DNA of 64,000 bases, from sequence record OR544956, one strand, 5' to 3'. The position numbers were made by a program, and so were the translations under genes. Source of the DNA: Escherichia phage vB_EcoM_EP57. This document shows positions 23,034 to 52,044 of the stretch, piece after piece; position 1 is the first letter of the stretch, and each line of letters opens with the position of its first letter. The notes beneath the pieces were generated by a model that was given only the letters and a program-made list of their open reading frames with translations, was not told the origin of the DNA and made no database searches.

Positions 23034-23038
23034 TAATC

Positions 23039-23129: not shown

Positions 23130-23138
23130 ATACTTATA

Positions 23139-23438: not shown

Positions 23439-23440
23439 GT

Positions 23441-24010: not shown

Positions 24011-24018
24011 TGTTCCTC

Positions 24019-24270
24019 CTAATCTGTTAGTTGTTCGTCCTCTACCAAGTTTGACACGAGAACGTCTGTTATATATTGATGCTGATAAACCCTTTCGGGA
24101 CTATCATCAAAAGCCAAACCTGTGCAAATAGAACAGAGGTCTGATTCCTTGATGACTCCATTTTTATCACGTCTGGAGTGGTTTGTCAAATGCCTATTAC
24201 AAGCACGGCACCTAAAATAAAAGCTATTTTGCATATATCCTTCGAACCCCAAATGGGGAGTGATCGGCAT
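24019..24270 (-). CDS. hypothetical zinc-ribbon protein
   Basis: 83 aa with paired CxxC (CRACN ... CSICTG). Confidence 0.35.
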   Translation of the reverse strand: MPITPHLGFEGYMQNSFYFRCRACNRHLTNHSRRDKNGVIKESDLCSICTGLAFDDSPERVYQHQYITDVLVSNLVEDEQLTD

Positions 24271-24307
24271 CTCCTCACTTCTAGTTTAGCACGAAGGATA
24301 TCTTAAG

Positions 24308-24505
24308 TCAACTAGGAATAATTTTATCCCTTTTGGTTTCATAACCAGTCCAATCTAAATCCTCCCAGCCTTCATCATCGTCTAACACATTGTCATCATC
24401 ATAAGATGCAATGTTATAAATAGAACGTGGATTACAAGACATACAATCTTTAATAGGCACATGATGCCATTTGCACGGATTCTCACTAATCATTGCACAC
24501 CTCAT
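24308..24505 (-). CDS. hypothetical Cys-rich acidic protein
   Basis: 65-aa ORF adjacent to the AT-rich divergent region. Confidence 0.3.
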   Translation of the reverse strand: MRCAMISENPCKWHHVPIKDCMSCNPRSIYNIASYDDDNVLDDDEGWEDLDWTGYETKRDKIIPS

Positions 24506-24519
24506 CTATAGATCAAGTA

Positions 24520-24690
24520 TTATTTATAATAATTTATTATTTTATTTTTAATTGATAGAAGTTGATCTGTACGTACCAGTTCTGATACACTGTACCTGTT
24601 TGTTAGATCTAATAATTATTTATTATTAATATTTAATAATTATTAATCTAGTACGGAGTACAGTACTTGAGTACAGAGTACTACATCAAC
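24520..24690. repeat. AT-rich iterated region between divergent transcription units (AATAATTATT repeats, GAGTACAG direct repeats, GTACGTAC and AGTACT palindromes)
   Basis: AATAATTATT at 24611 and 24635; GAGTACAG at 24656 and 24669; AGTACT twice; no ORF. Confidence 0.5.
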
Positions 24691-24915
24691 GACCTAAAAC
24701 CTTAACTCGCTGCGCTCGTTAATAGATTTCTAGGGTAACATACTTCGAACACAAAAGTCAAGAGTTTTATTAAAAATTATTTTCTGTGTGCAAAAACCTT
24801 GCTTAAACAGGTAGCAATAGTATTAAGAGGCTGTAGAGCAAGTTTACTTACTAGGTAAGGTGATTTATCATCTTATATATAAAAAGTGCGTCAGAGACGC
24901 GTTTAGGAGGCTAGA

Positions 24916-25332
24916 ATGAGATTTACAAGACAAGAGGTAGTTGTACTTGACGAAGCAATGACAATGATCGTCTTTTACTATGAGGATATCTTCTGTGCAG
25001 CATATCATTTAAATGATATTCAGATTGAATGGAAGCAGATAGCATTCCTGTTGGACAAGAGTAATCATTTGGATGGCTTTGAGTATTTGGAGTGGGATGG
25101 TGCAAAGGAAGTTAAAATTGTAGGGTTAAATCACGATCAGATTGTTGACATGCAATGTAAGTTGTGTCATTATCAGTTCTCAAACAATCCTGGCAACAAT
25201 TGTTCTGATTTTTGCCATGTGTGTGGTTCACGATGTTCTGGTAAGCTACTTTTGAAGACACAAGATGTGTCCTACAGCCGTGTTACGCTTACTGGCGACC
25301 ATACCCCAATCATGGAGTACGTAAAGAAATGA
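24916..25332 (+). CDS. hypothetical Cys-rich protein
   Basis: 138-aa ORF, AGGAGG RBS, CxxC pairs (CKLCH, CHVCGSRC). Confidence 0.45.
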   Translation: MRFTRQEVVVLDEAMTMIVFYYEDIFCAAYHLNDIQIEWKQIAFLLDKSNHLDGFEYLEWDGAKEVKIVGLNHDQIVDMQCKLCHYQFSNNPGNNCSDFCHVCGSRCSGKLLLKTQDVSYSRVTLTGDHTPIMEYVKK

Positions 25333-26132
25333 GCAACTATCCAATTACAGGCGTAACCTATTCTTGTGTAGCAAAAGGTGGTTTATATACAGTAGTGGAA
25401 TTTCCAAAACCTGCCGGAATATCTAAAGTGTTTGATCCTGTGGTTATCTATGAAGATCTTAGAACAGGTCAACGTTACTGGAGATTTGTGAATGACTTTT
25501 TAGATCGTATGGAGGTAGTAAGTGGCGAAAACACCGAAGAAGTTATCAAAGCCAACGTTACTAAGAAACCGAAAAACGAGGTTCTCAAAGTAGCCAAATC
25601 AGTTCCTAAGAAAGATAAATTTGATACGGAGGCATTCGTCTTTGACACACCAATCGAGAAGATTGAAGAAGCGTTGCAACGTCTTGAGGAGCAGGAGGCA
25701 GATCCAATGGCTGAACCACTCGCTGAAGCAAAAAACATTGGTCGTTCCAATGAAACAACACCAGAAGAACAAGCTGAACTTGAAGCTTTTGCCAAATGGA
25801 CAAAACAGTTAAAGAATGGCTATTATAAAACAAAAGAAGAAGCTGAAAACCATGTTCCTTCCACACCAATGAAATGCCAGGATTATAAAGATTATCCTGA
25901 AAGGGTTGTGTTCCCTGGTTATGCACAATACAAACTGAACGGGTTACGTTCTATGATTAACATGAAAGGAGAGTGTTTATCAAAAGCTGGGGAAGTGTAC
26001 AACCTGCCACCTCATTGGAAAGGTATTCCAAACTTTATTAGTGAAGTTGTTGGTCATCCTCTTGATGGTGAAGTGTTTGCTGGGTTAGGTGTCCTTAGTC
26101 TGCAACAAATTAACAGTGCTTGCAGTAGTTGA
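25329..26132 (+). CDS. ATP-dependent DNA ligase-like nucleotidyltransferase, N-terminal part (motifs I and III); apparently split from 26089..26592
   Basis: KLNGLR (motif I, KxDG-like) and LDGEVF (motif III); frame ends 16 codons after motif III. Confidence 0.45.
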   Translation: MSNYPITGVTYSCVAKGGLYTVVEFPKPAGISKVFDPVVIYEDLRTGQRYWRFVNDFLDRMEVVSGENTEEVIKANVTKKPKNEVLKVAKSVPKKDKFDTEAFVFDTPIEKIEEALQRLEEQEADPMAEPLAEAKNIGRSNETTPEEQAELEAFAKWTKQLKNGYYKTKEEAENHVPSTPMKCQDYKDYPERVVFPGYAQYKLNGLRSMINMKGECLSKAGEVYNLPPHWKGIPNFISEVVGHPLDGEVFAGLGVLSLQQINSACSS

Positions 26133-26592
26133 AGATTATGGTCTTGATGAGCTTATTTGTGTAGTTCATACAGAGTATATTGAAAACCAAGAACAGTTTG
26201 ATGCTTTCTATGAAAAAGCTTTACTTGAGAAAGCTGAAGGTGTAGTATATCGTAATGCTCACGGAGTTTACGAATTTGATAAACGTTCTTATGACGTTAT
26301 TAAACGTAAGCCTCGCCATACGCTTGAAGTTAAAGTAATAAATTCAAAAAGTGATAAAAATGGCGATGGAGTGTTGACAGGTGAGATGGAAAATGGTAAA
26401 GTAGTCGAATTCTTAATGCGTAAAGATGCTCATGAGACTATCAATTATCGTAAAGCAGAGAATGCTTCTACCTTGATTAATCAGTTCGTTGAAATAGAGT
26501 ATGAAGAATTTTCAGATGAAGGTATTCCAACAAAACCTGTTGGTGTTCGTATTCGAGAAATGATCCCAGGCACTTGGGAACCAGCAGAATAA
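26089..26592 (+). CDS. DNA ligase-like nucleotidyltransferase, C-terminal part (motifs IV and V), +1 frame relative to upstream ORF
   Basis: EGVVYR (motif IV) and DVIKRK (motif V); GTG start directly after an in-frame TAG, no RBS. Confidence 0.45.
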   Translation: MSLVCNKLTVLAVVEDYGLDELICVVHTEYIENQEQFDAFYEKALLEKAEGVVYRNAHGVYEFDKRSYDVIKRKPRHTLEVKVINSKSDKNGDGVLTGEMENGKVVEFLMRKDAHETINYRKAENASTLINQFVEIEYEEFSDEGIPTKPVGVRIREMIPGTWEPAE

Positions 26593-32271: not shown

Positions 32272-32880
32272 ATGCAGATAGTATGTGATTGGGATTTAGT
32301 TGTGGCTCCATTAGATGTTGCTTGGTTAGAATGGTTGAATAAGATTAGTGGACTTGGTGTTAAGATAGACACATTCACAAAAAATGCAGACTATGATCTT
32401 ACCAACTACTTTCCTGGTTTCAGGGAGGAGTTCAATATAGATCCTTACGGATTTCTGGATAATCCTCATCTCTATGATACAATGGGTTTTGTTGCAGGTA
32501 TGCCAGATTTCTTAAAGTATGTTTCAAGGAAAGGTAGCAATCTTTTGATCGCAAGTGTGACAAAAGGTGGTCACTTAAGTTCTAAACATAAGCATGTTTT
32601 AAGAACATTAGATACGATTGATTTTAGCAAAGGATCTGGCAACGGCTTTTTTGCTACGAAAGAAAAATACTTATTACCTTGTGATATAGCAATAGATGAC
32701 AGGGCTGATAACCTACTATATTTTCCAGATGAAGTGGTTAAAATATATTTTAATACGCCTTATAAAGATAACCATCTAGAAGAACTAAAGAAAAAACCAA
32801 ATGTTGTGATCACAGGTTTAGAAGATCAGTGGCTAACATGTTTGGATGTTTTTAACACTTTGAACAATTTTAAAAACTAA
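32272..32880 (+). CDS. HAD-superfamily phosphatase (5'-deoxyribonucleotidase candidate)
   Basis: N-terminal DWDLV (DxDx[TV]) and IDDRADN motif; sits among nucleotide-metabolism genes. Confidence 0.4.
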   Translation: MQIVCDWDLVVAPLDVAWLEWLNKISGLGVKIDTFTKNADYDLTNYFPGFREEFNIDPYGFLDNPHLYDTMGFVAGMPDFLKYVSRKGSNLLIASVTKGGHLSSKHKHVLRTLDTIDFSKGSGNGFFATKEKYLLPCDIAIDDRADNLLYFPDEVVKIYFNTPYKDNHLEELKKKPNVVITGLEDQWLTCLDVFNTLNNFKN

Positions 32881-32889
32881 GGAGAAAAA

Positions 32890-33888
32890 ATGACAAAACA
32901 GATTTCGGCTAGTATTATTGCGCATTCCATTACTGAAGACGGAAAAGAGATTGTAACTTTTGAACTAGAATATCCACGTATTATTCATTCAGAATTGATG
33001 ACTCACCGCCTGTTCAGTCGTAATGCTGCTTCTAGCCGTGCTATACCTGTTAAAACACTGATTGAAATGGTGCGAAATCAACCTGCTCGTCCTTATCGTT
33101 TTGGGGCTAACCAACCTGGTATGCAGGATAAAGGTGTTGATCATGACGCTCTTATTGATGCAGGTTATACTGCTCAAGAGTGGTGGGATCTTGCCGCGCT
33201 TAGTGCAGCACGTTTTGCAGAAGAATTCTCTTTGGCAGGGTACCACAAACAAGTTGCAAACCGTCTTCTGGAACCTTTCCAACGAATTAAAACAGTTCTG
33301 ACAGCAACAGAATATGAAAATTTCTGGTGGCTACGTGATGACAAAGAAGCCGATCCTACTATCGAAGCTTTGGCTAAAGAGATGCACAAAGAGTATGAAG
33401 GATCTACACCAGAAGTGCTGAAACCAGGGCAATGGCACACACCTTATGTAGACCATTTCTATGATAATATTGGTACAGAAGGTGACGATCATTTTGTTTT
33501 TGGTGGATACTACGTTCAAGATGAATCTGGAGAAGTTGTTGTGCTTACTTTGGAAGAAGCCAAAGCTATTTCAGCTTCGTGTTGTGCACAGGTTAGCTAT
33601 CGTCGTTTAAATGCAACTAAAGATAAAGCTTTAGATATCTATGGTCGCTTGCTGACTGGGCGCAAGGTTCATGCTTCTCCGTTTGAACATCAAGCTACTC
33701 CAATTCAAGAAACATGCGAACAATATGGAGAGAACTGTTTTGAAGATTTGTTTATCAATGCTCCTTGGGATTTTAACTCTTGGGAACCAGGTATTACCCA
33801 TGTAGATCGTAATGGTAAGTTTTGGTCTGGCAATTTCAAAGGCTGGATTCAACATCGTCAACTTTTAACAAATCATACTAAATGGTGA
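32890..33888 (+). CDS. thyX: ThyX-like flavin-dependent thymidylate synthase family protein with divergent signature and C-terminal extension
   Basis: MTHRLFSRNAASSRA aligns to the ThyX RHRxxSxxxxSSRY signature with first Arg replaced by Thr and Tyr by Ala; 332 aa. Confidence 0.45.
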   Translation: MTKQISASIIAHSITEDGKEIVTFELEYPRIIHSELMTHRLFSRNAASSRAIPVKTLIEMVRNQPARPYRFGANQPGMQDKGVDHDALIDAGYTAQEWWDLAALSAARFAEEFSLAGYHKQVANRLLEPFQRIKTVLTATEYENFWWLRDDKEADPTIEALAKEMHKEYEGSTPEVLKPGQWHTPYVDHFYDNIGTEGDDHFVFGGYYVQDESGEVVVLTLEEAKAISASCCAQVSYRRLNATKDKALDIYGRLLTGRKVHASPFEHQATPIQETCEQYGENCFEDLFINAPWDFNSWEPGITHVDRNGKFWSGNFKGWIQHRQLLTNHTKW

Positions 33889-33904: not shown

Positions 33905-33932
33905 TTGACTTTAGTATTAGTTTTAGTATAAT
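33905..33932 (+). promoter_or_regulatory. consensus sigma70 promoter
   Basis: TTGACT - 16 nt - TATAAT. Confidence 0.55.
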
Positions 33933-34664: not shown

Positions 34665-36905
34665 TTGATTCGTTTTGTAACTAAATCTAATGGTAAGACA
34701 GAGGAGTTTAATCCAGAAAAACTTCGCAAGTGGTCTGAATTTGCAGCAGGTAAACTAAACTGGTCTGAAATTGAATTAGAAGCTGTGAAGCGGTGTTATG
34801 ACGGTGTGTCTACACGTGATCTGCATAAAGCAATGATTGCAGCGTGTATTGACAAGAAAACACAAGCTTACAGTGATATGGCAGGAAGACTTCTTCTGGG
34901 TATGATTTACAAACAGGCTCATGGGGGATACCACAGTATCCCTTCACTGAATACCTTTTATCATGATATGGTAGAACGTGGACATTGGGCTAAAATGGAT
35001 TATACTGATGAAGAGATCAAAGAAATAGGTAAGATTGTAAAGCATAATAAAAATCTAACTTATGGTTATTCTGTTTTACGTCAGATGGTAGATAAATATC
35101 TTATTCGAGATGCAGTAAACGATGTGGTGCATGAGTCTCCACAATTTCTTTTCATTGGTATCGCAATGAAGGTTATGGAGATCCAACCAAAAGAACGCCG
35201 TATAGAAGATATTAAAAAACTTTATACTTATGTTAGCGATCTTAAGATTAATCTGCCATCGCCGTATCTGACAACTCTACGAACTCCAATCAAAGGAAGT
35301 GCGTCTTGTTGTTTATTCCGTGCAGACGATACGGCAGAATCTTTAGCCATTGCTAATTACTTAGCTCATGAGTATACGTTGAATAACGCAGGTATTGGTG
35401 TTAATCTTCAAACTCGTGCCACAGGTCAAGGTGTTAAGAATAATCGTATTATTCATGGTGGTCTTCTTCCGTATCTGAAATGGATGGAAGATAGTGTTGG
35501 AGCTTCGAAGCAAGCAAGCCGTGGAGGTAGTGCTACAGTTACCTTCACCATACTTGAACCAGACTTCGACGATCTGATTCGACTGAAGAATCCAACAACA
35601 CCTATAGATAAACGAGTAGACAAACTGGATTATTCTATTGTTGTTAACCGTTCGTTCTTGCGTCGAGCAGCAAAAAACGAAGATTGGATGTTAGTTAGTT
35701 GTGATGATGCTCCTGAACTTTATGAAGCTTTGTATAAAAGTGAAGAAGAGTTTGATGCAGTTTATGACAAAGTAAGCCGTCGTCGCATTAAGAAAAAATT
35801 TGTTAAGGCTCGTGATCTTCTGACAGAGATTATTGTTCAACGTGCAGAAACAGGACGTATTTACATGTTCTTTGCTGACAACGTTAACAACCATACACCT
35901 TTCCTGGATACGGTGTATCAATCAAACCTGTGTCAAGAGATCTTCTTACCAACTAAAGCTTTCCACAGTATGCCGGATCTCTTTACTGGTGAGAATACAG
36001 AAGATCAAGAATTGGCTTTATGCTTCTTATCTTCTATTGTTGCTGGTCGTGTCTTACCTGAAGAATATGAGGATGTTGCATATTACACTGTATTGACAAT
36101 TGACAACGTTATTGAAACAATGGATTATCCATTTAAACATAACGAAATAACTGCTAAAGCACGTAGATCTATTGGTGTAGGTATTACAAACTTAGCGCAT
36201 TATTTGGCAAGTAATTTTGTAAATTATTCAGATGCTTATGCTAAAAAATTAATGCATGAACTTGCAGAACGTCATTACTTTTGGTTGGCAAAAGCCTCTC
36301 TGCGTCTGGCTAAGGAAAAAGGTAATGCAGAATGGATCGATAAGACCAAATGGCCTCAAGGTTGGCTACCAATTGACACTTATGCTAAAACAGTAGATAG
36401 TATCGGTAATTTTGATCTTAAAATGGACTGGGAAGGCTTACGTGCTGAAATCATTGAACAAGGTGGTATCCGTAACAGTGTCTTGGCTGCTATTGCACCT
36501 AATGAGTCCAGCAGTTTGGTAAGCAATACTACTAACTCTCTGTACCCTGTTCGTGATACTATTATGTATAAACAAAGTCAGAAAGGTAGCGTATTATTTA
36601 TTGTTCCAGATTACGAAAAACTGAAAATGTTCTACCAATCCGCCTGGGATACTCCGGCTAAAGACCTTGCAGAAATGTATGGTATCTTTACCAAGTTTAC
36701 GGACCAAGGAATTTCTTGTGATTCTTGGTTAGATTATTCTAAATTGGTAGGGGGACGTTTATCAGTTAAAGAAGAGATGAAATTTATTTTGAACTTTGCT
36801 AGACTGGGTGGTAAGTCATTGTATTACCTTAATAGTAGAACAAAATCAGCAGATTCTTTAGCACAAGAAGATTCTGATGGTGGTTGTGAAGCTTGCAAGA
36901 TGTGA
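34665..36905 (+). CDS. nrdA: ribonucleoside-diphosphate reductase large subunit
   Basis: 746 aa; N-terminal ATP-cone (VTKSNGKTEEFNPEKLRKW); TTG start after GGGAGGAG; followed by nrdB. Confidence 0.8.
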   Translation: MIRFVTKSNGKTEEFNPEKLRKWSEFAAGKLNWSEIELEAVKRCYDGVSTRDLHKAMIAACIDKKTQAYSDMAGRLLLGMIYKQAHGGYHSIPSLNTFYHDMVERGHWAKMDYTDEEIKEIGKIVKHNKNLTYGYSVLRQMVDKYLIRDAVNDVVHESPQFLFIGIAMKVMEIQPKERRIEDIKKLYTYVSDLKINLPSPYLTTLRTPIKGSASCCLFRADDTAESLAIANYLAHEYTLNNAGIGVNLQTRATGQGVKNNRIIHGGLLPYLKWMEDSVGASKQASRGGSATVTFTILEPDFDDLIRLKNPTTPIDKRVDKLDYSIVVNRSFLRRAAKNEDWMLVSCDDAPELYEALYKSEEEFDAVYDKVSRRRIKKKFVKARDLLTEIIVQRAETGRIYMFFADNVNNHTPFLDTVYQSNLCQEIFLPTKAFHSMPDLFTGENTEDQELALCFLSSIVAGRVLPEEYEDVAYYTVLTIDNVIETMDYPFKHNEITAKARRSIGVGITNLAHYLASNFVNYSDAYAKKLMHELAERHYFWLAKASLRLAKEKGNAEWIDKTKWPQGWLPIDTYAKTVDSIGNFDLKMDWEGLRAEIIEQGGIRNSVLAAIAPNESSSLVSNTTNSLYPVRDTIMYKQSQKGSVLFIVPDYEKLKMFYQSAWDTPAKDLAEMYGIFTKFTDQGISCDSWLDYSKLVGGRLSVKEEMKFILNFARLGGKSLYYLNSRTKSADSLAQEDSDGGCEACKM

Positions 36906-36913
36906 TGAAACTA

Positions 36914-36935
36914 GGGGCTTCGGCCCCTTTTTATT
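36914..36935 (+). terminator. stem-loop GGGGCTTCGGCCCC plus T-run
   Basis: GGGGC-TTCG-GCCCC then TTTTTATT. Confidence 0.5.
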
Positions 36936-36949: not shown

Positions 36950-38035
36950 ATGGCAGCAATTAATTTACACAATGAAGTTTACAAAACAGGAAAATATCCA
37001 GTATTTTTGGGGGAGCAATTAGGGATCTTTGATTCTGTTAACGTAACTTATCCAGAAATGCACAAACTCTACAAACTTCAAAAAGCACAAGATTGGGATG
37101 AAAACGAAGTTAATCTGGATCAGACACGTAAAGATTTCGTAGCTTGTTCTAAAAACAACTATGATGTTATGATTAAAAACTTATCGTTCCAATGGGAAAA
37201 TGATTCTCTTGCAAAATCAATCATCACTTTGTTCTCTCCATTCTTGAGTAACAATGAAGCCTGTGCTATGATGATGAAGCAGAGTGAAATGGAAGTTCTC
37301 CATGCGTTAACGTATTCTGAAATAATCCGTCAATGTACTCCAGATCCAATTGAAGTCATCAATCAGATTATGATTAATGATAAAATTTTCAATCGTATGG
37401 GTATCATTGCTGATATCATGGGTCAGTTGGAAGAAGCTGGTCATAAGTATGCTCTAGGATTGATTGAAGCTAACGATGAACTTCGCTTGCTGATTCTTAA
37501 AGGGATGGTAGCCCTGATTGGATTAGAAGGTATTCAGTTTATATCTTCCTTCTCTGCTACTTTTGCTATGGCAGAACAACAATTGTTTGTTGGGGCTTGT
37601 AAACTGATCCAGAAAATTATGCTAGATGAAATCTTGCATGTTAAGATGGACTATGCTGTAATTGATGCATTGATGCATGACCCAATTTGGCGTAAAATTT
37701 ACGAAGATAATATTGAAGAGTTGACTTTGATCCTCGACACTGTTGTTGAACAAGAGGAACAGTGGTGTGACTACCTGTTTAGTGAAGGTCGTTTTATTGT
37801 AGGTCTTAACGCCGAATTGTCTAAACAGTGGGTTTATTTCAATGCTGCTCCTATTTATCGTCGATTGAAAATGAAAGCCAAGTTTAAAGCACCTAAACAT
37901 AGTCCTTTAGCTTGGATGGAAAAATGGTTGAATCCTGATTTGATTCAGTCAGCAGCCCAAGAGATTCAGTTAACTAATTACAAATTGAATTCAGCTAACA
38001 AAGATCTCTCTGATGATGAGGAGCTTGACTTCTAA
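36950..38035 (+). CDS. nrdB: ribonucleoside-diphosphate reductase small subunit
   Basis: 361-aa ORF directly after nrdA, RBS and ATG; size typical of class I R2. Confidence 0.7.
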   Translation: MAAINLHNEVYKTGKYPVFLGEQLGIFDSVNVTYPEMHKLYKLQKAQDWDENEVNLDQTRKDFVACSKNNYDVMIKNLSFQWENDSLAKSIITLFSPFLSNNEACAMMMKQSEMEVLHALTYSEIIRQCTPDPIEVINQIMINDKIFNRMGIIADIMGQLEEAGHKYALGLIEANDELRLLILKGMVALIGLEGIQFISSFSATFAMAEQQLFVGACKLIQKIMLDEILHVKMDYAVIDALMHDPIWRKIYEDNIEELTLILDTVVEQEEQWCDYLFSEGRFIVGLNAELSKQWVYFNAAPIYRRLKMKAKFKAPKHSPLAWMEKWLNPDLIQSAAQEIQLTNYKLNSANKDLSDDEELDF

Positions 38036-38244
38036 TGATTTTGAGATGTGTTGGTATAATCGACACATTCAAAGACGTTTTTGACAAAGGGGCTTCTTAT
38101 GAAGCCTCCGAAATGAAGAATGGTTTTTGTGATGTATTCGGTAAACGCCCGAAGAAAAACGGCGATCCTTGGCTAGGAGTTATGTCTTGTGGTCATATTA
38201 TTGTAAATGGTGTTGCCAAGTTTGAAATAATTAAGGAGGAATAA
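38035..38244 (+). CDS. hypothetical small protein
   Basis: 69 aa, ATGA overlap with nrdB stop. Confidence 0.35.
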   Translation: MILRCVGIIDTFKDVFDKGASYEASEMKNGFCDVFGKRPKKNGDPWLGVMSCGHIIVNGVAKFEIIKEE

Positions 38245-38537
38245 TGGCTGAAAAACTTATTTTTTGTCCTGTGTGCGGTGGGACTGGACAGATGGAAGTG
38301 GAAATTATGGTAACATTTCCTTGCCTGAATTGTCATGGTGAAGGACGAGTAGTAATCTTTGAAAAAGAAGAGGTGGAAGATGGAGAAGAGTATGTCCGTA
38401 TTCCACGAGAATTAACAGATCACATTGCAGAAGCAATAGCTTTCGAAGCTAGATGTTGTGGAGGCATTGCTTACGATATTTATGAAGCAATTATTAAAGC
38501 TGCTCAAGAAGAGGAGGAGATGAAAAATGGGTATTGA
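38244..38537 (+). CDS. hypothetical zinc-ribbon protein
   Basis: CPVCGGTG...CLNCHGEG; acidic C-terminus. Confidence 0.4.
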   Translation: MAEKLIFCPVCGGTGQMEVEIMVTFPCLNCHGEGRVVIFEKEEVEDGEEYVRIPRELTDHIAEAIAFEARCCGGIAYDIYEAIIKAAQEEEEMKNGY

Positions 38538-38853
38538 TATCGAATGGCGTATGTTACAGGGTGCACCTTTTAATAAGTGGGAAGAGGCTGTAGGAGAAGA
38601 TCCTAGAATTGAAGAAGAATTTGACGGAGATTTTAACTGGTTCTTACAAGAAGGTCTGGACTTAAGCCGCATCTCTCCTTTCTACGATGCGGATGAGTCT
38701 TATTGCATATATGGCCTTGATTTAGAAGGCGGAGAGGGAAGCATAGCTGTAGATCTTGAGCAATTGAATGAGAATGCAAAAGAAGCCTATGCAAAGCTAC
38801 TTGAAAAATATAACATTAAAACGGAAACTATTATTTCTCAACATGTTTGGTAA
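38527..38853 (+). CDS. hypothetical acidic protein
   Basis: 108-aa ORF, coupled to neighbours. Confidence 0.35.
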   Translation: MGIDIEWRMLQGAPFNKWEEAVGEDPRIEEEFDGDFNWFLQEGLDLSRISPFYDADESYCIYGLDLEGGEGSIAVDLEQLNENAKEAYAKLLEKYNIKTETIISQHVW

Positions 38854-38862
38854 GGAGAACTG

Positions 38863-39855
38863 ATGCGCTATCTGGTAACAGGTGGTCTTGGTTTTATTGG
38901 GAGTGCCGTGGTGCGCTCTCTTTGTCAAGATCCTAATAACGAAGTTTTTGTCGTTGATAAGATGGGCTATGCAGCAGATATTGAGAATGTAGGCGATATC
39001 ACTCACGTTAAACTAAGCATAACAGATTTGGCAAACGAAACCCAGGTCAAAAGTTTAGTAGTAGAGTGCAATCCTGACTTCATCATTCACTTAGCGGCAG
39101 AAAGTCATGTGGATAATTCTATCAAGAATCCACGAGTTTTCATCGACTCCAATATTATCGGTACATACAATTTATTGGAAGCTGCAAGGCTCCTCCCAAA
39201 AAATAAACTGAAGATGTTCGTACACGTCTCCACAGACGAAGTGTACGGCGATATGGCAGACTCTGGCGTTCCCTTTACCGAAAAGACAGCTTATGCCCCT
39301 TCAAGCCCGTACAGTGCGTCTAAGGCAGCATCTGACCATCTTGTGAAAGCTTGGCACCGCACCTACGATTTGCCTGTTGTGATAACCAACTGCTCCAATA
39401 ACTTTGGGCCTTATCAACATCCAGAAAAGCTGATCCCAAAAATCATCACAAGTATCTTGACGAATAAAGAGATTCCGGTGTATGGTAAAGGCGACCAGGT
39501 GCGAGACTGGCTTTTTGTTGAGGATCATGCGCGAGCTATTCTTCAAGTGGCAACAGGTGGAGAACCAGGTCAAACGTATAATGTTGGAACACGTAATCCC
39601 AAAACCAATATGGAGATCATCTATATGGTTTGTGACTATATGGATACTGTACATCCAGAAGCAGTAACCTACCCTTCTTCCAACTTGATAACTTTTGTTG
39701 AAGATCGTAAAGGACATGACTTGCGTTATGAAATCAATCCTTCTAAGATAGAGTCTGAACTGGGCTGGAGTGCAAACTCTACATTTGAACAAGATCTCTA
39801 CTCAACGATTGAATGGTACTTAAACAACCCTCAATGGTGGAGTGAGAAAATTTAA
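38863..39855 (+). CDS. rmlB: dTDP-glucose 4,6-dehydratase
   Basis: [17 protein letters not shown] Rossmann motif; catalytic [15 protein letters not shown] (YxxxK); 330 aa. Confidence 0.9.
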
Positions 39856-39863
39856 GGAGGGTT

Positions 39864-40742
39864 ATGAAAGGTATTATTTTGGCGGGAGGAAGTGGAACCC
39901 GCCTTCATCCGGTAACACGCAGTGTGAGCAAGCAATTGCTCCCTGTGTATGACAAACCCATGATCTACTACCCTTTATCGGTATTGATGTTGGCTGACAT
40001 TAAGGATATTTTAATCATCACCACACCAGGTGATCAGGAAGACTTTGAGTATCTTCTCGGAGATGGGTCTATGTTTGGGATAAAACTCACTTACGCAATC
40101 CAATCCGAGCCACGAGGTCTTGCGGAAGCTTTCATCATAGGTAAAGATTTTATCGGAGAAGACTCTGTTGCTCTTATTTTAGGTGACAACCTATTCTTCG
40201 GACAAAGCTTTGGTAAACTACTGATTAACGCTAGTGAGATGGTAGATGTTTGGGGTGGAGCTTGTATCTTCGGGTATTTGGTGAAAGATCCTGAACGATT
40301 CGGTGTGGTTGAATTTGGGAGTAATCGTCAAGCTATTTCTATTGAAGAGAAACCTGAAAATCCTAAATCAGATTATGCTGTCACAGGTTTGTATTTCTAT
40401 GATAACTCTGTTATTCAACGTGCATTAGAAGTAACCCCTTCCGCGCGTGGAGAACTGGAGATCACTGATATCAATCGCAGCTACCTAGAAGACAGCAAGT
40501 TACAAGTGGAAGTTCTCGGACGAGGATTTACTTGGCTTGACACAGGAACACACGCCAGTCTGATGGAAGCTGGTCAATTCGTGCAGACTATTGAGAACCG
40601 TCAAGGATTGAAGATTGCGTGCCTGGAAGAAATTGCTTTCAAAAAAGGGTGGATTTCTTTAGAGACTTTGGTGTATCATGGAAACTCACTGAAGAAAACA
40701 GAGTACGGGCAATACCTACTCAAATTAGCGGAGAGAAAATGA
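39864..40742 (+). CDS. rmlA: glucose-1-phosphate thymidylyltransferase
   Basis: [39 protein letters not shown] signature; 292 aa. Confidence 0.9.
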
Positions 40743-41305
40743 AAGTAGAAAAAACAAAAATTGAAGGTGCGGTAATTATCAAACCAGACGTTTATAAAGA
40801 TGATCGTGGTTTCTTTCTAGAAACATATAATGAACAAAAATACGAAGATATTATTGGTAGACAAACTTTCGTTCAAGATAACATGTCTAAATCAAACTTC
40901 GGTGTTTTGCGAGGAATGCACTTTCAAACAAATAACCCGCAAGGTAAGCTTGTTCGTTGTGTAAGTGGGGAAGTATTGGATTTCGCTGTAGATTTACGTA
41001 AAGATAGTCCAACTTACGGTGCTTGGGACGGTGTTGTTCTTCGTGCACGACACCATACGCAGTTTTGGCTTCCACCTGGTTTGGCACATGGTTTTATAGT
41101 TTTGAGTATGGATGCGATCTTTGAATACAAATGCACAACTCCATACGACCCTTCTAGTGAACAAAGTTTACGTTGGGATGATCCTGATATAGGGATCGAT
41201 TGGGGCTTCGATATGATTTTTGACGAAGGTTTTAAACCTATTCTATCAACAAAAGATGCAATGGCTAAATCTTTTCAACAGTTACGTAGCGAGGGTGTAT
41301 GCTAA
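40739..41305 (+). CDS. rmlC: dTDP-4-dehydrorhamnose 3,5-epimerase
   Basis: ATG at 40739 overlaps rmlA stop (ATGA); cupin with RGMHFQ motif; 188 aa (track start 40619 is an upstream alternative start inside rmlA). Confidence 0.8.
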
Positions 41306-42141
41306 CATATCTGGTATTGGGCGGTAATGGACAACTGGGACAAGCTTTACGTAAAGTGGCTCCTTCAAATGTATCTTTAATTTATCCTAAAGAACGTGTA
41401 GATATTACAAATTTTGAAGCTGTGCGAAACGCTATTATTGAAGATTATGTAGATGGTGTTATTAATTGCGCCGCTTATACGGCTGTAGATAAAGCAGAAC
41501 ATGATTTTGCTACTGCTTTGGCTGTTAATGCGTATGGACCTGCAAATATTGCGGCAGTGTGCAGCAAACTTAAAATTGATTTTGTGCATATTTCTACAGA
41601 CTATATTTTTAATTATTCTCATCCTATTTTTGAAGATACTACACCTAACCCAATAAACAATTATGGGTATACGAAAGAACTTGGTGAAAAAATGGTGCGA
41701 GGAGTTAACCCAAATGCATATATTATTCGAACAGCCTCGGTATATAGCGAATTTGGAAATAACTTTCTAAAAACCATGTTGTCTCGCTATAATGATGGAC
41801 AACGTGATTTTATTATTGTTGCTGATCAGTTCTCTTGTCCAACATATGCTCCAGATTTAGCAGAAGCTATTTTTGAAGTATTAAAAACAGGTTGGTCAAG
41901 GTCTGTTAAGACTTACCATTTTGCAGGAAGCCATCTTATTTCTTGGGCGGAGTTTGCGGAAAAAATCTTGACACAGATGCCAGAACCTGTTAAGATATCG
42001 GCGGTATCAGCTTCAACCTATAATGCTCCAGCAGCACGTCCGGTGAAGTCACAACTAGTAACCAGTCACTATCTTACAAAATCAGATTTAAATAAAGGTA
42101 TTGAACAGTCTTTAGCAGTATTACTTAATAAGGAGAGGTAA
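41299..42141 (+). CDS. rmlD: dTDP-4-dehydrorhamnose reductase
   Basis: N-terminal LVLGGNGQLG; YGYTK (YxxxK); 280 aa; overlaps rmlC stop. Confidence 0.7.
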   Translation: MLTYLVLGGNGQLGQALRKVAPSNVSLIYPKERVDITNFEAVRNAIIEDYVDGVINCAAYTAVDKAEHDFATALAVNAYGPANIAAVCSKLKIDFVHISTDYIFNYSHPIFEDTTPNPINNYGYTKELGEKMVRGVNPNAYIIRTASVYSEFGNNFLKTMLSRYNDGQRDFIIVADQFSCPTYAPDLAEAIFEVLKTGWSRSVKTYHFAGSHLISWAEFAEKILTQMPEPVKISAVSASTYNAPAARPVKSQLVTSHYLTKSDLNKGIEQSLAVLLNKER

Positions 42142-42401
42142 TGGAATTTGTAATTTTTGGTAAACCTAACTGTCAATTTTGCGAAATGTCAAAACAACTA
42201 TTAACCATGCGCAATAAACAGTTTGAATATTTAAGTCTTGATCAAGACTATGATTTAGAATCAATGACTAAAACAGTTGTTGATCTTACCGGAGTTCCTC
42301 CACGCACATTTCCACAAATTCTGTCCGAAGTGAACGGGGAGGTAACATACGTAGGCGGTTTTACCGAACTGCGTGATCTCATGGCTCAAATTGCGGAGTA
42401 A
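42141..42401 (+). CDS. glutaredoxin / NrdH-like redoxin
   Basis: 86 aa with N-terminal CQFC (CxxC); TAATG coupling to rmlD. Confidence 0.6.
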   Translation: MEFVIFGKPNCQFCEMSKQLLTMRNKQFEYLSLDQDYDLESMTKTVVDLTGVPPRTFPQILSEVNGEVTYVGGFTELRDLMAQIAE

Positions 42402-44998: not shown

Positions 44999-45066
44999 CT
45001 TCTAAATCTGAAAATATTAATCTCGTAAATGTGGCGGATTTCGAAGGAACCGCTATTTAACAAACT

Positions 45067-45087
45067 GCCCCTTCGGGGGCATTTCTT
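45067..45087 (+). terminator. stem-loop GCCCC-TTCG-GGGGC with weak T-tract
   Basis: hairpin followed by ATTTCTT. Confidence 0.3.
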
Positions 45088-48382: not shown

Positions 48383-48690
48383 TGTATAAGATTACAATTA
48401 TTCAAAGTGTAGGTAATATCCGTAAAGAAGTTATCTTAGAAACAGAAGATGTTAATCTTGTTCGTGAGATTGTTCTTAAGGAAGATAACCTGCAAGCTGT
48501 AGAATCAGATGCACCGAATCTTATGGTGGATCAAGAATATTCTGAACTTCGTCGTATTTTTGAAGAGATTCAGAAGAAAGAAACACAACCTACCATAAAA
48601 CCTTTTGGTCCTTATGATCCGAGCAATCCTAGCAGTCCTTGGATCATGAGAAATACGGAACCCTATACACCTTTTGAAATTACTTGTTGA
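48382..48690 (+). CDS. hypothetical protein
   Basis: 102-aa ORF, coupled. Confidence 0.35.
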   Translation: MYKITIIQSVGNIRKEVILETEDVNLVREIVLKEDNLQAVESDAPNLMVDQEYSELRRIFEEIQKKETQPTIKPFGPYDPSNPSSPWIMRNTEPYTPFEITC

Positions 48691-48697
48691 GGTGATT

Positions 48698-49279
48698 ATG
48701 GCAGAACTGTTCTATACGGGAGTTGGAAGTAGGGACATATCTGAAGAAGAGTGGGCTTTGATGGTAGGCATAGGGAAATGGCTTTCAAACCTTGGGTTTA
48801 AATTACGGTCTGGGAAGGCAGAGGGTAGTGATTCTGCTTTTGAAACAGGTGTCCAAGAGTCTGAAAATCCTACTAACAAGGAGATTTATGTTCCTTGGGA
48901 AAATTTCAAAGGTAATCAGATTCCAGGTGATGTTATTGTTCTTGCAAAACCAGATACAATGAACTATGCTATCTCTGTGCAATGGATTAAAGATGTTCAC
49001 CCAGCTTATGAAAAGCTTAAGCAGGGTGCTAGAAAATTGCACCAACGTAATGTGCATCAAGTGTTAGGCAGAGATTTGGAGAATCCTGCTCCATCATGTT
49101 TCTTATTGGCTTGTGCTAATACTGATAAACATGGGGATGCAAAAGGTGGAACAGCTACGGCTTGGAAGATAGCTAAAGCCAATAATGTTCCTTGTTTAAA
49201 CATTCGTGGGAAAACAAAACAAGAGATTTACGATTTTCTACGACCTTTGGTAATGAGGGCGATAACAAGTGATTCCTAG
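48698..49279 (+). CDS. DprA/Smf-like Rossmann-fold (SLOG) protein
   Basis: YTGVGSRDIS...LRSGKAEGSDSA matches the DprA GSR...SG.A.G.D pattern; ATG at 48698 with RBS. Confidence 0.45.
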   Translation: MAELFYTGVGSRDISEEEWALMVGIGKWLSNLGFKLRSGKAEGSDSAFETGVQESENPTNKEIYVPWENFKGNQIPGDVIVLAKPDTMNYAISVQWIKDVHPAYEKLKQGARKLHQRNVHQVLGRDLENPAPSCFLLACANTDKHGDAKGGTATAWKIAKANNVPCLNIRGKTKQEIYDFLRPLVMRAITSDS

Positions 49280-49781
49280 ACGTAAACGTGGTGAACAAAG
49301 AACAAACTTGGCAGAAATCTTAGATTACAACATGGTTAATGATGTGACAAAAGAAATTCTGCCTGTTGTAGAAGATATTCTTCGTAGAGGGTTACGATTC
49401 TGCTCGGATCGGGTGCATTTCATGTGGACACATAAAAGTGACTCCGCTTTGAATTTCTATCCTTTGGACTATACTCTGAACAATACAGAGATGAAAGATA
49501 TCAACAAATATTTAATGGGATATAAAGATATAACCGAAACTGTTCTTGGAGAATTGGCAGAAATCTTGGCTAACGATATCCTTAGAAATATTAATAAGGC
49601 TCTTGACAGAAGCCCAGCAGGAGTAGTAGTATCTTTTGCTGTGCCAGATATGGTTAAATATGAGTCTACAATACCTAATAAAGCTTATGCCTTTCTTCGG
49701 AGAGACGTTCGTGGAAATGTGTTGGAGATGGAGTCAAACTACAAGATTGAGGAGGTTTTATGGCAGAGTTCGGATCAGTAA
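49269..49781 (+). CDS. hypothetical protein
   Basis: 170-aa ORF. Confidence 0.35.
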   Translation: MIPRRKRGEQRTNLAEILDYNMVNDVTKEILPVVEDILRRGLRFCSDRVHFMWTHKSDSALNFYPLDYTLNNTEMKDINKYLMGYKDITETVLGELAEILANDILRNINKALDRSPAGVVVSFAVPDMVKYESTIPNKAYAFLRRDVRGNVLEMESNYKIEEVLWQSSDQ

Positions 49782-50050
49782 CAAGTTTTGAAAGTAACTT
49801 CGTTACCGCTTGGGAAGCTTGGGATGAAATGGGTGTTGGGGAACTTTATTTTTACAATGTAACACTACGCCCAGAGTATGTTTACCTGGTACCAGAAGGA
49901 ACAGTTCAAATTGGCATGTATTTGTCTTCTCAAGACGGTGTTGTTCAATTTGAGTTTTATTCAAACACAACGGACAACGAATTTACATACCGCGCATTTC
50001 ATGTCAACATGTCTTTAGGAGAGGAGAAATTTTATGACGACCAAGTTTAA
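49760..50050 (+). CDS. hypothetical protein
   Basis: 96-aa ORF with RBS. Confidence 0.35.
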   Translation: MAEFGSVTSFESNFVTAWEAWDEMGVGELYFYNVTLRPEYVYLVPEGTVQIGMYLSSQDGVVQFEFYSNTTDNEFTYRAFHVNMSLGEEKFYDDQV

Positions 50051-50231
50051 AACAGTAGAAGAAGCCGTAAAAGCAGCTTATGAGGCTTTAGCGGAAGCAG
50101 AGCAGTTAGCAGACGAGACTGGTGAAGGTTTCAGCTTCTCCCCTGAATATGGGATGGGTGGTTATTATGATCCAGAAGATGAAAATGAGAATACTGGAAC
50201 AAATTGGCATCCATCTTCTTTAAGTTGTTAA
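50034..50231 (+). CDS. small acidic protein, family member 1 (C-terminal W-x-SS-x-C motif)
   Basis: 65 aa ending NWHPSSLSC. Confidence 0.4.
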   Translation: MTTKFKTVEEAVKAAYEALAEAEQLADETGEGFSFSPEYGMGGYYDPEDENENTGTNWHPSSLSC

Positions 50232-50242
50232 TAGGAGGTAAA

Positions 50243-50512
50243 GTGGGAATCGAAGATATCAAAGGTTATAAACCGCATACCGATGACAAAATTGGTAAAG
50301 TGAATGCTATTAAAGATGCTGAAGTTCGATTAGGATTAATCTTTGATGCTCTAATGTCTGAATTGTGGGCTGAACTGGATGATTGTGAAGATTTGGAAGA
50401 GTCTACCAATATATCCACCCGCCTTGACCAAATTTCAATAGCAAAGACTAAGTTGAAAGAAGCTTCTATGTGGGCCTGTCGTTCCGTTTTCCAACCAGAG
50501 GAGAAATACTAA
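50243..50512 (+). CDS. hypothetical acidic protein
   Basis: GTG at 50243 after AGGAGG. Confidence 0.3.
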   Translation: MGIEDIKGYKPHTDDKIGKVNAIKDAEVRLGLIFDALMSELWAELDDCEDLEESTNISTRLDQISIAKTKLKEASMWACRSVFQPEEKY

Positions 50513-50730
50513 TGAGTTATCGTAATGTTGAAGAATTAACTGAAAAAGCCCAAGCTATTATGGCTTTGGTGGACGAACTTACAAAAGAAGCTGAAGATGC
50601 TGGTTTTGGTCTTAGTTTAGAAGATGACGCAATCTGTTTTGAAGATTGGCAATCCTCTTCTTGTTATGGTGAAGGTGATGATGGTTTCGTTGTTAATTCT
50701 CAAGGCGTTTGGCACAGTAGTAGCTGTTAA
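50512..50730 (+). CDS. small acidic protein, family member 2
   Basis: ATG at 50512 after GAGGAG; ends GVWHSSSC. Confidence 0.4.
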   Translation: MSYRNVEELTEKAQAIMALVDELTKEAEDAGFGLSLEDDAICFEDWQSSSCYGEGDDGFVVNSQGVWHSSSC

Positions 50731-50739
50731 GGAGAGATT

Positions 50740-51012
50740 GTGGAGTCTGAAGGCGAACTGCTGATAAAAAAGAAAGTTAAAGAGATGGAACAAGCACAAA
50801 GAAAGTTTCGTAAGGAAATTGAAGAACTTTGTGAACAGTTTCAGGAACAAGCTTGGATAGGTGACTACGGTAACGGAGAAACTTATTACCCTACAGGAAC
50901 GCCAGCCGCAGATCACTATATTGATTTCATTTGTGAAGATTATGGTGTAGAGTTGGATGAAAATGGTTTAACCACAAGAGGTGTTTGGATCTCTTCTTCC
51001 TCAATGTGTTAG
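50740..51012 (+). CDS. small acidic protein, family member 3
   Basis: 90 aa ending GVWISSSSMC; RBS AGGAG. Confidence 0.4.
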   Translation: MESEGELLIKKKVKEMEQAQRKFRKEIEELCEQFQEQAWIGDYGNGETYYPTGTPAADHYIDFICEDYGVELDENGLTTRGVWISSSSMC

Positions 51013-51022
51013 TAAATAATAA

Positions 51023-51044
51023 CCCGCTTCGGCGGGTTTTTTAT
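51023..51044 (+). terminator. rho-independent terminator
   Basis: CCCGC-TTCG-GCGGG followed by TTTTTTAT. Confidence 0.6.
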
Positions 51045-51072
51045 TGACAGGAATCTGGAAGCTTGATAAACT
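51044..51072 (+). promoter_or_regulatory. sigma70-like promoter
   Basis: TTGACA - 17 nt - TAAACT. Confidence 0.35.
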
Positions 51073-51102
51073 TAACCTATCAACCAATAGAGGAGAAATA
51101 TT

Positions 51103-52044
51103 ATGGTGTTAATTGGTAGCCGTGCATTGCAAATTCATGCTATGGACATGGGAAAAGACTTGTATCGCCCTTGTGTAGATTTAGATTACCTGTGTACAGA
51201 ACAAGAGTGGGAAGAATTATCAAAAATGTTCTCTCAAGACGAGTTTGTTGAACTTGTAGAACGTAAAGGAAACAAAGGCCATGTCAAAATGATAGCTGGT
51301 GCACATTTGGAATACGATATTGCTTCTCAAGGAGATAGCACAGAAGCTTTGATTAGCTATTGTGAAGATTCTGATGATGTTCGTCGAACTTACGCTGGAC
51401 ATGTTGTTGCTCCTTTAGATGTGCTCTACCTTCTTAAAATGAGTCATCGTTTTAAAAAGGATAGTCCTCACTTCTTTAAAACTATGAAAGATATTCATTT
51501 CATGCGGTCACTGGGCGCAAAGATCCCAGAAAATCTTAAGAGTATTTATGAGTTGCGTGAGAAAGAAACATACACTTACTCTCATCCGAACTTAAACGTA
51601 AAAAGTAAAGAGTTCTTTAAAGGTGACGAGGTTCCGTATGTTTATGATCATGATTCTATCCATGAAGCAATCGCGTTAATGGATGCTCCAGCATATAAAT
51701 CTTATATGAAAGATGGAAGTGAAGTTATGACCAGCAAAGAAAAGTTTTTTGCTCAACCAAAACATGTGCGGCTGTTAGGTGTTTATGAAGAAGCGTGTGT
51801 TTTGGCTTTGGAACGTTCACAAATTCCTTTCGGTGAAGAGATCGGAGGTCCAACCCCTAAGCAAAGTTTTATAATGGCTTTATCTAAAGTCTGCACATCC
51901 ATCACTAGTGGTTGGTTTAGGGAATATGCTTGGGAAAACTTTTATGTTGTTACTAAGCTATATGAAAACATGGGCGAAAACGACTATGTTGAACGTTTTA
52001 AAGCTAATCAACATGTAGTTAAGCCTTTTGAAGGAGGTTATTAA
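51103..52044 (+). CDS. hypothetical protein with weak nucleotidyltransferase-like GS...DxD pattern
   Basis: 313 aa; N-terminal LIGSRALQIH...CVDLDYL; spacing longer than canonical minimal NTases. Confidence 0.3.
   Translation: MVLIGSRALQIHAMDMGKDLYRPCVDLDYLCTEQEWEELSKMFSQDEFVELVERKGNKGHVKMIAGAHLEYDIASQGDSTEALISYCEDSDDVRRTYAGHVVAPLDVLYLLKMSHRFKKDSPHFFKTMKDIHFMRSLGAKIPENLKSIYELREKETYTYSHPNLNVKSKEFFKGDEVPYVYDHDSIHEAIALMDAPAYKSYMKDGSEVMTSKEKFFAQPKHVRLLGVYEEACVLALERSQIPFGEEIGGPTPKQSFIMALSKVCTSITSGWFREYAWENFYVVTKLYENMGENDYVERFKANQHVVKPFEGGY

Follow-up and report, generated by a model that had tools for sequence, protein, structure and literature searches.

The 64,000-nucleotide (nt) stretch of Escherichia phage vB_EcoM_EP57 analysed here (record OR544956; hereafter, the window) encodes, with near-certainty as judged from its sequence, a complete and intact pathway for the synthesis of deoxythymidine diphosphate (dTDP)-L-rhamnose, in the form of four consecutive genes: rmlB-rmlA-rmlC-rmlD (the rml cassette). 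This cassette is likely to supply the sugar donor for a module of glycosyltransferases encoded elsewhere in the genome of these phages. The best overall explanation, to which we give a little less than an even chance, is that the donor is used for the phage-directed glycosylation of a target made by the phage itself, most likely its virion proteins.

The cassette itself has been described before. Its products have been annotated in GenBank since phAPEC8 (2012) and, after that, in dozens of records; it was called "peculiar" by Olsen et al. (2020; PMC7552041) and, in turn, Maffei et al. (2021; BASEL, PMC8594841) mention a 'putative dTDP glycosylation machinery'. An initial annotation of this DNA had been unable to say whether the cassette was described for this phage lineage, a question that these sources answer in the affirmative. 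By nucleotide comparison, the window belongs to the genus Phapecoctavirus, subfamily Stephanstirmvirinae. Its cassette span is 99.6% identical in nt to that of Escherichia phages tuntematon and nieznany and 99.5% identical to that of phAPEC8, while a 20-kb stretch around the cassette shows 99.3% identity to tuntematon. The same four rml products are annotated in phAPEC8 (JX561091), tuntematon (NC_052660) and nieznany. Nothing material differs from the published cassettes of the subfamily: the window represents another isolate, with gene order and neighbours as in phage phi92.

Identity of the four rml genes

The four genes of the cassette, with their scores against the NCBIfam profiles, are the following:

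38863-39855, plus strand: rmlB, dTDP-glucose 4,6-dehydratase; 330 amino acids (aa); TIGR01181, 430.8 bits (cut-off 365.1)
39864-40742, plus strand: rmlA, glucose-1-phosphate thymidylyltransferase; 292 aa; TIGR01207, 468.2 bits (cut-off 360.65)
40739-41305, plus strand: rmlC, dTDP-4-dehydrorhamnose 3,5-epimerase; 188 aa; TIGR01221, 225 bits (cut-off 155.75)
41299-42141, plus strand: rmlD, dTDP-4-dehydrorhamnose reductase; 280 aa; TIGR01214, 237.6 bits (cut-off 224.05)

Profile scores were judged against the curated equivalog cut-offs of NCBIfam, with Pfam being concordant. Since all four proteins lie above these cut-offs and keep their catalytic residues, the assignment of the four open reading frames (ORFs) to rmlB, rmlA, rmlC and rmlD, as proposed in the initial annotation, is borne out. 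Specifically: (i) RmlB aligns to Salmonella RmlB (1g1a, E 2e-110) with its GxxGxxG, TDE (Thr-Asp-Glu) and YxxxK (YSASK) motifs kept; (ii) RmlA is covered by the TIGR01207 match from residue 2 to 289 of 292, has 4ho0 as top PDB match (E 3e-126), and keeps GGSGTRL (the GGxGTRL signature), WLDTG and other active-site motifs; (iii) RmlC, when aligned to 1dzr, presents RGMHFQ, GKLVRC, FEYKCT and STKDA, with the catalytic His, Lys, Tyr and Asp positions kept, and is matched far more weakly by mono-epimerases such as NovW (106 vs 193 bits); and (iv) RmlD has 3sc6 and 1vl0 as top PDB matches and keeps GxxGxxG (GGNGQLG), STDY and YxxxK (YGYTK). The margin of RmlD over the TIGR01214 cut-off is narrow (13 bits); all of its relatives that bear names are called RmlD. 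Regarding rmlC, the ORF as listed runs from an upstream GTG (40619-41305), the real ATG being located at 40739. Four consecutive matches at equivalog level, kept in ~130 related genomes, are far beyond what sequence comparison would be expected to return by chance.

According to these assignments, RmlA would convert glucose-1-phosphate and dTTP to dTDP-glucose, from which RmlB would generate dTDP-4-keto-6-deoxyglucose; RmlC and then RmlD would transform this intermediate into dTDP-L-rhamnose. The C4 stereochemistry of the predicted RmlD product, i.e. L-rhamnose vs 6-deoxy-L-talose, is not readable from the sequence.

The bacterial RmlABCD/RfbABCD enzymes of Salmonella and E. coli belong to the same four families at equivalog level and have the same catalytic residues. 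The phage cassette differs from the bacterial loci in that it lacks an adjacent rhamnosyltransferase, flippase or polymerase and is located inside a ribonucleotide-reductase block. Besides, phage RmlD forms a phage-specific clade, at most 45% identical to cellular RmlD.

Insertion site, age and structure of the cassette

In phage rV5, a member of the sister subfamily, the glutaredoxin gene (grx) directly follows nrdB and the rml cassette is absent. Therefore, the rml genes, together with three small ORFs that precede them in the window, represent an insertion into an ancestral nrdB-grx junction. The arrangement B-A-C-D-grx is found at the same site in phi92 (NC_023693, genus Justusliebigvirus), in phiWec179 and in Klebsiella phage 05F01. 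The latter is the deepest branch found: its RmlB, RmlA, RmlC and RmlD are 56, 66, 45 and 39% identical to those of the window, respectively, and its NrdB is 60% identical. With RmlD as query, the relatives form an unbroken series from 99 to 50% identity, many of them on phage-sized contigs of ~150 kb; cellular RmlD comes only after an abrupt step, at 45% or less. This series fits a single old capture with no identifiable recent donor. In sum, the comparison of sequences indicates that the cassette is old and has been vertically inherited throughout the Stephanstirmvirinae, down to 05F01. A search of phage genomes, which had been suggested to learn how widespread it is, found it kept in ~130 related genomes across the subfamily.

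Among 5,426 complete E. coli genomes, the best match reaches ~64% nt identity over 46% of the query, and there the gene order is that of enterobacterial rfb loci (B-D-A-C) instead of the B-A-C-D of the phage, which rules out a recent host origin. The cassette has a G+C content of 0.40 vs 0.39 for the window. The view that it is not a transferred host island thus stands, on account of the low identity to E. coli, the phage-like composition and the conservation across the subfamily. Within the genus, the ratio of non-synonymous to synonymous substitution rates (dN/dS) is 0.12 for rmlB, 0.08 for rmlA, 0.02 for rmlC and 0.02 for rmlD: all four genes are under purifying selection. Homologues of RmlA and RmlC at 40-67% identity are also present in unrelated phages, namely Sphingomonas phage PAU (gp185-187), Synechococcus phage S-B05, and Acinetobacter and gut metagenomic phages; these would be independent acquisitions in other genomic contexts.

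The cassette consists of two halves. RmlC is found at 95% identity or more in 64 phage records vs 46 for RmlA. In ESCO37-type genomes, exactly rmlB and rmlA are gone and rmlC-rmlD are kept, a loss that affects about a quarter of the Phapecoctavirus records; the same absence of rmlB-rmlA has been reported (PMC10269720). When ESCO37 (4968-5013 of the excerpt) is compared with positions 38830-38875 and 40705-40750 of the window, the deletion junction reads GGTAAGGAGA joined to GAAAATGA, a join at the microhomology GGAGA that the ribosome-binding sites of rmlB and rmlC share. As the join falls between two ribosome-binding sites, rmlC keeps one. In the deleted variants, rmlC shows 12-21 synonymous changes vs 1 non-synonymous change. 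Phage phiWec179 (4125-7400 of the excerpt) is a mosaic whose RmlB and RmlA are 94 and 97% identical to those of the window, with only 63 and 65% for RmlC and RmlD. Moreover, in the window the G+C content at third codon positions is 0.39-0.41 for rmlB and rmlA vs 0.22-0.26 for rmlC and rmlD. This difference and the phiWec179 mosaic indicate partly separate histories for the two halves. The loss of rmlB-rmlA would be tolerated because E. coli RffH/RffG or RmlA/RmlB can supply dTDP-4-keto-6-deoxyglucose; rml/rff homologues are present in 5423 of the 5426 E. coli genomes. The always retained rmlC-rmlD half would then carry the steps that commit the intermediate to rhamnose, the rmlB-rmlA half being dispensable.

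The genes and signals that surround the cassette are the following:

33905-33932, plus strand: candidate sigma-70-like promoter, TTGACT-16-TATAAT, 11/12 consensus match, in the gap after a ThyX-like gene
34665-36905, plus strand: nrdA, large subunit of class Ia ribonucleotide reductase; an ORF annotated as gp246 in tuntematon
36913-36928, plus strand: G+C-rich hairpin followed by a T-run in the 44-nt nrdA-nrdB gap; attenuator- or terminator-like
36950-38035, plus strand: nrdB, small subunit of ribonucleotide reductase; left border of the insertion site
38035-38853, plus strand: three small ORFs (69, 97 and 108 aa) in the nrdB-rmlB interval, with counterparts in tuntematon, phi92 and 05F01
42141-42401, plus strand: grx, glutaredoxin; 86 aa; PF00462, 38.1 bits; right border of the insertion site
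45066-45081, plus strand: first convincing terminator-like hairpin downstream of the cassette, bidirectional

From 38035 to 42401, all genes lie on one strand with spacers of at most 9 nt. Direct reading of the junctions shows an 8-nt spacer with AGGAGG, and no overlap, at rmlB/rmlA; an ATGA overlap at rmlA/rmlC; a 7-nt overlap (ATGCTAA) at rmlC/rmlD; and TAATG at rmlD/grx. The description of the ORFs as overlapping is thus correct for three of the four junctions, the exception being rmlB/rmlA. Similarly, the placement between nrdB and the glutaredoxin gene holds, except that the three small ORFs separate nrdB from rmlB. The span of 38863-42401 formerly given to the pathway has to be shortened to end at 42141, given that it includes the glutaredoxin, which is a reductant for NrdAB outside the sugar pathway and adjoins nrdB in rV5.

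A hairpin scan found no convincing plus-strand terminator between 36928 and 45066. The common strand, the short spacers, this terminator-free run and the empty site of rV5 support the placement of the cassette inside the nrdA-nrdB...grx block of the phage, and its co-transcription with the ribonucleotide reductase genes is likely, a reasonable reading of the sequence. The site at 33905-33932 is a possible start of such an nrd-rml transcription unit; in rV5, a sigma70 promoter is annotated at the equivalent place after thyX. The strong nrdA-nrdB hairpin may be an attenuator through which the ratio of the two subunits, or the expression of the genes downstream, is set. As first step of the proposed mechanism, one transcript of the early or middle phase of infection would carry both the cassette and the ribonucleotide reductase genes, and the pathway would in consequence use dTTP to whose synthesis this very block contributes.

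Three other traits of this block can be mentioned. The 97-aa small ORF (38244-38537) contains two CxxC pairs (CPVCGGTG...CLNCHGEG), in the manner of a DnaJ-type zinc finger; the annotation of tuntematon splits its equivalent into two shorter ORFs. The gene at 32890-33888 (332 aa), annotated as a flavin adenine dinucleotide (FAD)-dependent thymidylate synthase, is a weak ThyX (Pfam Thy1, 33 bits, partial domain) with the signature THRxxSxxxxSSR rather than RHR, and its protein had no sequence match to any solved structure. Finally, an NT5C-like 5'-deoxynucleotidase is encoded directly upstream of this ThyX-like gene (region 32272-33888).

Glycosyltransferases and the acceptor of the sugar

Within the window, neither Pfam (20 ORFs of at least 130 aa) nor what RefSeq annotates in the corresponding part of tuntematon revealed any glycosyltransferase, TET/JBP dioxygenase or hydroxymethylase. 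The ORF at 14624-15739 was considered as a glycosyltransferase and discarded, its match to Glyco_tranf_2_4 (E 0.055) being noise. The initial annotation, which recognised no glycosyltransferase nearby, was therefore right inside the window. It does not hold genome-wide, as tuntematon carries the following ~70 kb from the cassette:

48463-51607 of NC_052660: gp113-gp116, four adjacent glycosyltransferase genes, all four so named by PHROGs

These genes, outside the window, are located just upstream of those for a primase-helicase and DNA polymerase, and are themselves immediately preceded by TerC, TerD and TerF-like vWA genes. gp114 has invariant FDDD and YGxED motifs and a predicted GT-A fold (predicted local distance difference test score, pLDDT, 88.9). 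gp115 has a predicted GT-B fold of the GT4 type (pLDDT 94.9), and gp116 is its paralogue (41% identical). Neither gp114 nor gp115 had a sequence match to solved structures or NCBIfam, and fold searches with them returned only generic GT-A and GT-B/GT4 matches, including TarM, TarP and PglA.

The case for the cassette as donor supply for this module comes from their joint inheritance. The GT-B protein is found in 64 records at 95% identity or more and in 66 at 60-80%; the corresponding numbers are 64 and 65 for RmlC, and 64 and 68 for NrdB. The isolates that have lost rmlB-rmlA retain the glycosyltransferase cluster, and 05F01 carries homologues of gp113, gp114 and gp115 (40, 43 and 46%) at the same position. 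As far as the sequences go, the rml and glycosyltransferase sets are retained together in every branch of the subfamily examined. As second step of the mechanism, dTDP-L-rhamnose would be the donor for the homologues of gp113, gp114 (GT-A), gp115 (GT-B) and gp116.

Homologues of the module in other phages provide information on the acceptor. The GT-B family has at least 569 confirmed matches in IMG/VR. Terminase, portal or capsid genes lie within 6 ORFs of the GT-B gene in 37 of 77 loci (at least five terminase clusters); a primase-helicase is found instead in 13, which are Stephanstirmvirinae-like, and the clusters annotated gave no assignment for the remaining 27. The arrangements seen include: (i) TerL-portal-GTB-gp113-GTA-(PLOD-type glycosyltransferase)-(O-methyltransferase); (ii) TerL-GTA-GTB-...-portal-...-capsid; and (iii) capsid-x-GTB-x-head-closure. 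Among the neighbours of the module are a hexapeptide acetyltransferase, a PLOD-type glycosyltransferase and a rhamnosyl-O-methyltransferase-like enzyme. The GT-A/GT-B pair is also present in prophages of Pseudomonas silvicola (9357-10960 of the excerpt) and Enterobacter huaxiensis (8354-10921 of the excerpt), between a late regulator and lysis genes on one side and, immediately downstream, the terminase genes, i.e. in the Q-dependent late region. In the Enterobacter prophage, an RmlB-like nucleoside diphosphate (NDP)-hexose 4,6-dehydratase, with TDE and YxxxK kept, is encoded directly upstream of the pair, so that the module is linked to 6-deoxyhexose synthesis independently there.

Soluble enzymes that come without flippase or polymerase, a module that does not depend on the host and its late-operon position in prophages argue for an acceptor made by the phage (virion proteins or DNA) rather than for the host surface. 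Virion proteins are the best single guess, a tentative one made by analogy, because homologous modules sit in many unrelated phages inside the terminase/portal/capsid block, with acetyl- and O-methyltransferases. In this third and tentative step, the soluble enzymes would build the glycan directly on a cytoplasmic acceptor made by the phage, most probably virion proteins. The more specific proposal that the Stephanstirmvirinae (phAPEC8-, phi92- and 05F01-like phages) put a rhamnose-containing glycan on virion proteins by means of a cytoplasmic module of three or four enzymes is rather doubtful.

Viral systems with a comparable logic do exist. In giant viruses, which are eukaryotic, UDP-L-rhamnose synthesis (Mimivirus) and GDP-sugar enzymes (chloroviruses) feed the glycosylation of capsids or fibrils; these viruses encode both sugar synthesis and cytoplasmic glycosyltransferases and are in this regard host-independent, although they use two-enzyme routes based on uridine or guanosine diphosphate (UDP, GDP) and not the four-enzyme dTDP route. 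To our knowledge, virion glycosylation in phages has so far been shown only for actinobacteriophages. Glycosylated capsids of mycobacteriophages Che8 and Rita are reported via PMC11256854, and phage Corndog carries an O-methyltransferase and three glycosyltransferases (gp35-38) between portal and protease (PMC4351075). The module homologues in other phages share with Corndog the position among terminase, portal and capsid genes, a likeness of organisation alone. None of the Corndog genes looked at belongs to a nucleotide-sugar pathway.

Several observations weigh against virion proteins as the acceptor of phage-made rhamnose. In the first place, the glycosyltransferase cluster of the subfamily adjoins replication genes (primase-helicase and DNA polymerase) and not structural genes; in this respect, too, it differs from Corndog, and comparison of the module with Corndog gp36, gp37 and gp38 detected no homology (hhalign probabilities of at most 1.3%). 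In one large group of freshwater phages, a ParB-DNA methyltransferase (with terminase) adjoins the module. Secondly, the generic matches of the modelled folds reveal neither donor nor acceptor, and the co-occurrence of the rml and glycosyltransferase sets concerns essentially one clade, so that it is suggestive and weak as statistics. GT4 enzymes are mostly retaining, which is unusual yet known for rhamnosyltransferases (WsaF). Thirdly, the capsid, decoration, sheath and tube proteins in the window have no conspicuous Ser/Thr-rich C-terminal tails. Lastly, the literature searched holds no experimental report of a glycan on these virions, nor a demonstrated glycan on any phage of Gram-negative bacteria; for phAPEC8- and phi92-like phages, it yielded remarks on genome annotation only, and no experimental work on rhamnose, virion glycosylation or DNA modification.

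The sugar might alternatively be directed at the envelope of the host: lipopolysaccharide (LPS) core or a lipid-linked glycan would be rhamnosylated, or dTDP-4-keto-6-deoxyglucose would be diverted from enterobacterial common antigen (ECA) and the like, with the aim of blocking superinfection or of keeping progeny off debris. GT4-like and GT-A enzymes do include LPS-core and teichoic-acid glycosyltransferases (such as TarM, TarP and PglA). The said intermediate is shared with the ECA pathway, and variants with only rmlC-rmlD would drain it. Surface glycans are recognised by these phages, and a wecB mutant lowers infection (PMC8594841); nevertheless, according to a later BASEL paper the Justusliebigvirus receptor, formerly taken for ECA, is now the NGR glycan, which removes the specific ECA logic. 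For this reason, and given the range of unrelated hosts whose phages have the module, diversion of the ECA precursor was downgraded as main explanation. Furthermore, the presence of homologous modules in phages of very different hosts and the location of the prophage copies in the late lytic operon, unlike that of lysogenic-conversion genes, argue for a host-independent acceptor made by the phage. No flippase, polymerase or membrane glycosyltransferase accompanies gp113-116 in the annotation of tuntematon, and a pre-existing surface glycan would presumably outlast the short lytic cycle. All in all, envelope remodelling is unlikely.

A role in DNA glycosylation, as put forward in print by Olsen et al. 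(2020; PMC7552041), is assessed as quite unlikely. Here, phage glycosyltransferases would move rhamnose onto hydroxymethylated or hydroxylated bases of the phage DNA, which would shield it from the nucleases of the host, as glucosylated hydroxymethylcytosine (hmC) does in T4. The genomic setting speaks in its favour: the cassette lies in a nucleotide-metabolism block, the glycosyltransferase cluster beside primase-helicase and DNA polymerase, and the freshwater phage module beside ParB-DNA methyltransferase and terminase, a neighbour that leaves room for a DNA-directed role. So do two weak matches of gp114, one to TET-associated glycosyltransferase (TAGT; 19.5 bits, E 1e-3, under the cut-off of 27.5, over 37 residues around DxD) and another to PHROG 842, beta-glucosyl-HMC-alpha-glucosyltransferase (E 8e-6). 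The atypical ThyX-like gene (THR for RHR, no PDB sequence match) also bears on this explanation through its uncertain chemistry.

T4 resembles the phages studied here in being a lytic myovirus with nucleotide-metabolism genes and soluble glycosyltransferases. Its system, however, consists of a hydroxymethylase plus alpha- and beta-glucosyltransferases that use UDP-glucose from the host, whereas here the sugar donor is made by the phage. Neither the 150-kb annotation of tuntematon nor Pfam on the 20 window ORFs yielded a hydroxymethylase for dCMP or dUMP (the deoxycytidine and deoxyuridine monophosphates) or a TET/JBP dioxygenase, the divergent ThyX-like protein being the sole candidate for an enzyme that hydroxylates a base, and the glycosyltransferase folds are not closest to those of the T4 alpha- and beta-glucosyltransferases. 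In addition, phi92-like relatives, of another genus than that of the window, are 'exceptionally susceptible' to restriction-modification systems (PMC8594841) and yet carry the same rml and glycosyltransferase genes. Homologous modules that combine several glycosyltransferases with acetyl- and O-methyltransferases suggest a decorated oligosaccharide and not a base modification.

Very improbable is a function in pool management, according to which the pathway would act as sink or buffer of dTTP and glucose-1-phosphate, or as a regulator of nucleotide sugars, with no dedicated acceptor. The co-location of the cassette with nrdAB, the ThyX-like gene, the NT5C-like nucleotidase and glutaredoxin, in a window with no glycosyltransferase, fits this idea. 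But a sink does not need all four steps, least of all the stereospecific RmlC and RmlD, whose genes are the two never lost, and the co-inherited glycosyltransferase module is an obvious consumer. RmlA is normally feedback-inhibited by dTDP-rhamnose, which would limit any sink. As for a decaying or neutral passenger, i.e. a captured bacterial cassette with no present function, the viability of about a quarter of the Phapecoctavirus records without rmlB-rmlA is the one point for it, and it is effectively refuted by conservation: four intact genes with their catalytic residues kept, dN/dS of 0.02-0.12, and retention across phages of E. coli and as far as Klebsiella phage 05F01, whose core gene nrdB is itself only 60% identical.

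Other observations and biological meaning

Some features of the window and its relatives are independent of the cassette. On the minus strand, the window carries: (i) 10 tRNA genes at 21554-23515 (Met x2, Ile, Pro, Gln, Gly, Thr, Asn, Ser and Arg); and (ii) a serine recombinase/resolvase at 60838-61515 (PF00239, 65.9 bits), although the phage is strictly lytic; in the corresponding region of phi92, a DNA invertase is annotated. At 24000-26592, the gene for an ATP-dependent DNA ligase looks disrupted in comparison with gp261 of tuntematon (372 aa): residues 47-179 and 216-371 of the latter fall in two frames, with ~106 nt gone between them, and neither the first 46 residues nor the ~1.7 kb upstream of them (24000-25721) have a counterpart in tuntematon. 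Four records deposited as Campylobacter phages B15, A145, C3 and A110a (MG065650, MG065645, MG065656 and MG065689) share 98% identity with Phapecoctavirus or Justusliebigvirus genomes of E. coli, wrong labels or contamination being the probable cause.

The cassette as such was already covered by published work. What is new here is its insertion site, the depth of its conservation, the structure in two halves with a clean rmlB-rmlA deletion, and the co-inherited glycosyltransferase module with its habitual place among head and packaging genes elsewhere. These additions turn an open remark into a testable hypothesis, for which the natural isolates with the rmlB-rmlA deletion and rml/rff-null hosts are ready-made tools. 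Broad-host-range phages of this kind are popular candidates for therapy, and a glycan coat made by the phage could affect antibody recognition, stability and mucus binding; as regards the first of these, PMC11256854 reports the capsid glycans of mycobacteriophages as a shield from antibodies. If the hypothesis is true, virion glycosylation would be widespread among phages of Gram-negative bacteria, with the module being present in hundreds of viral contigs.

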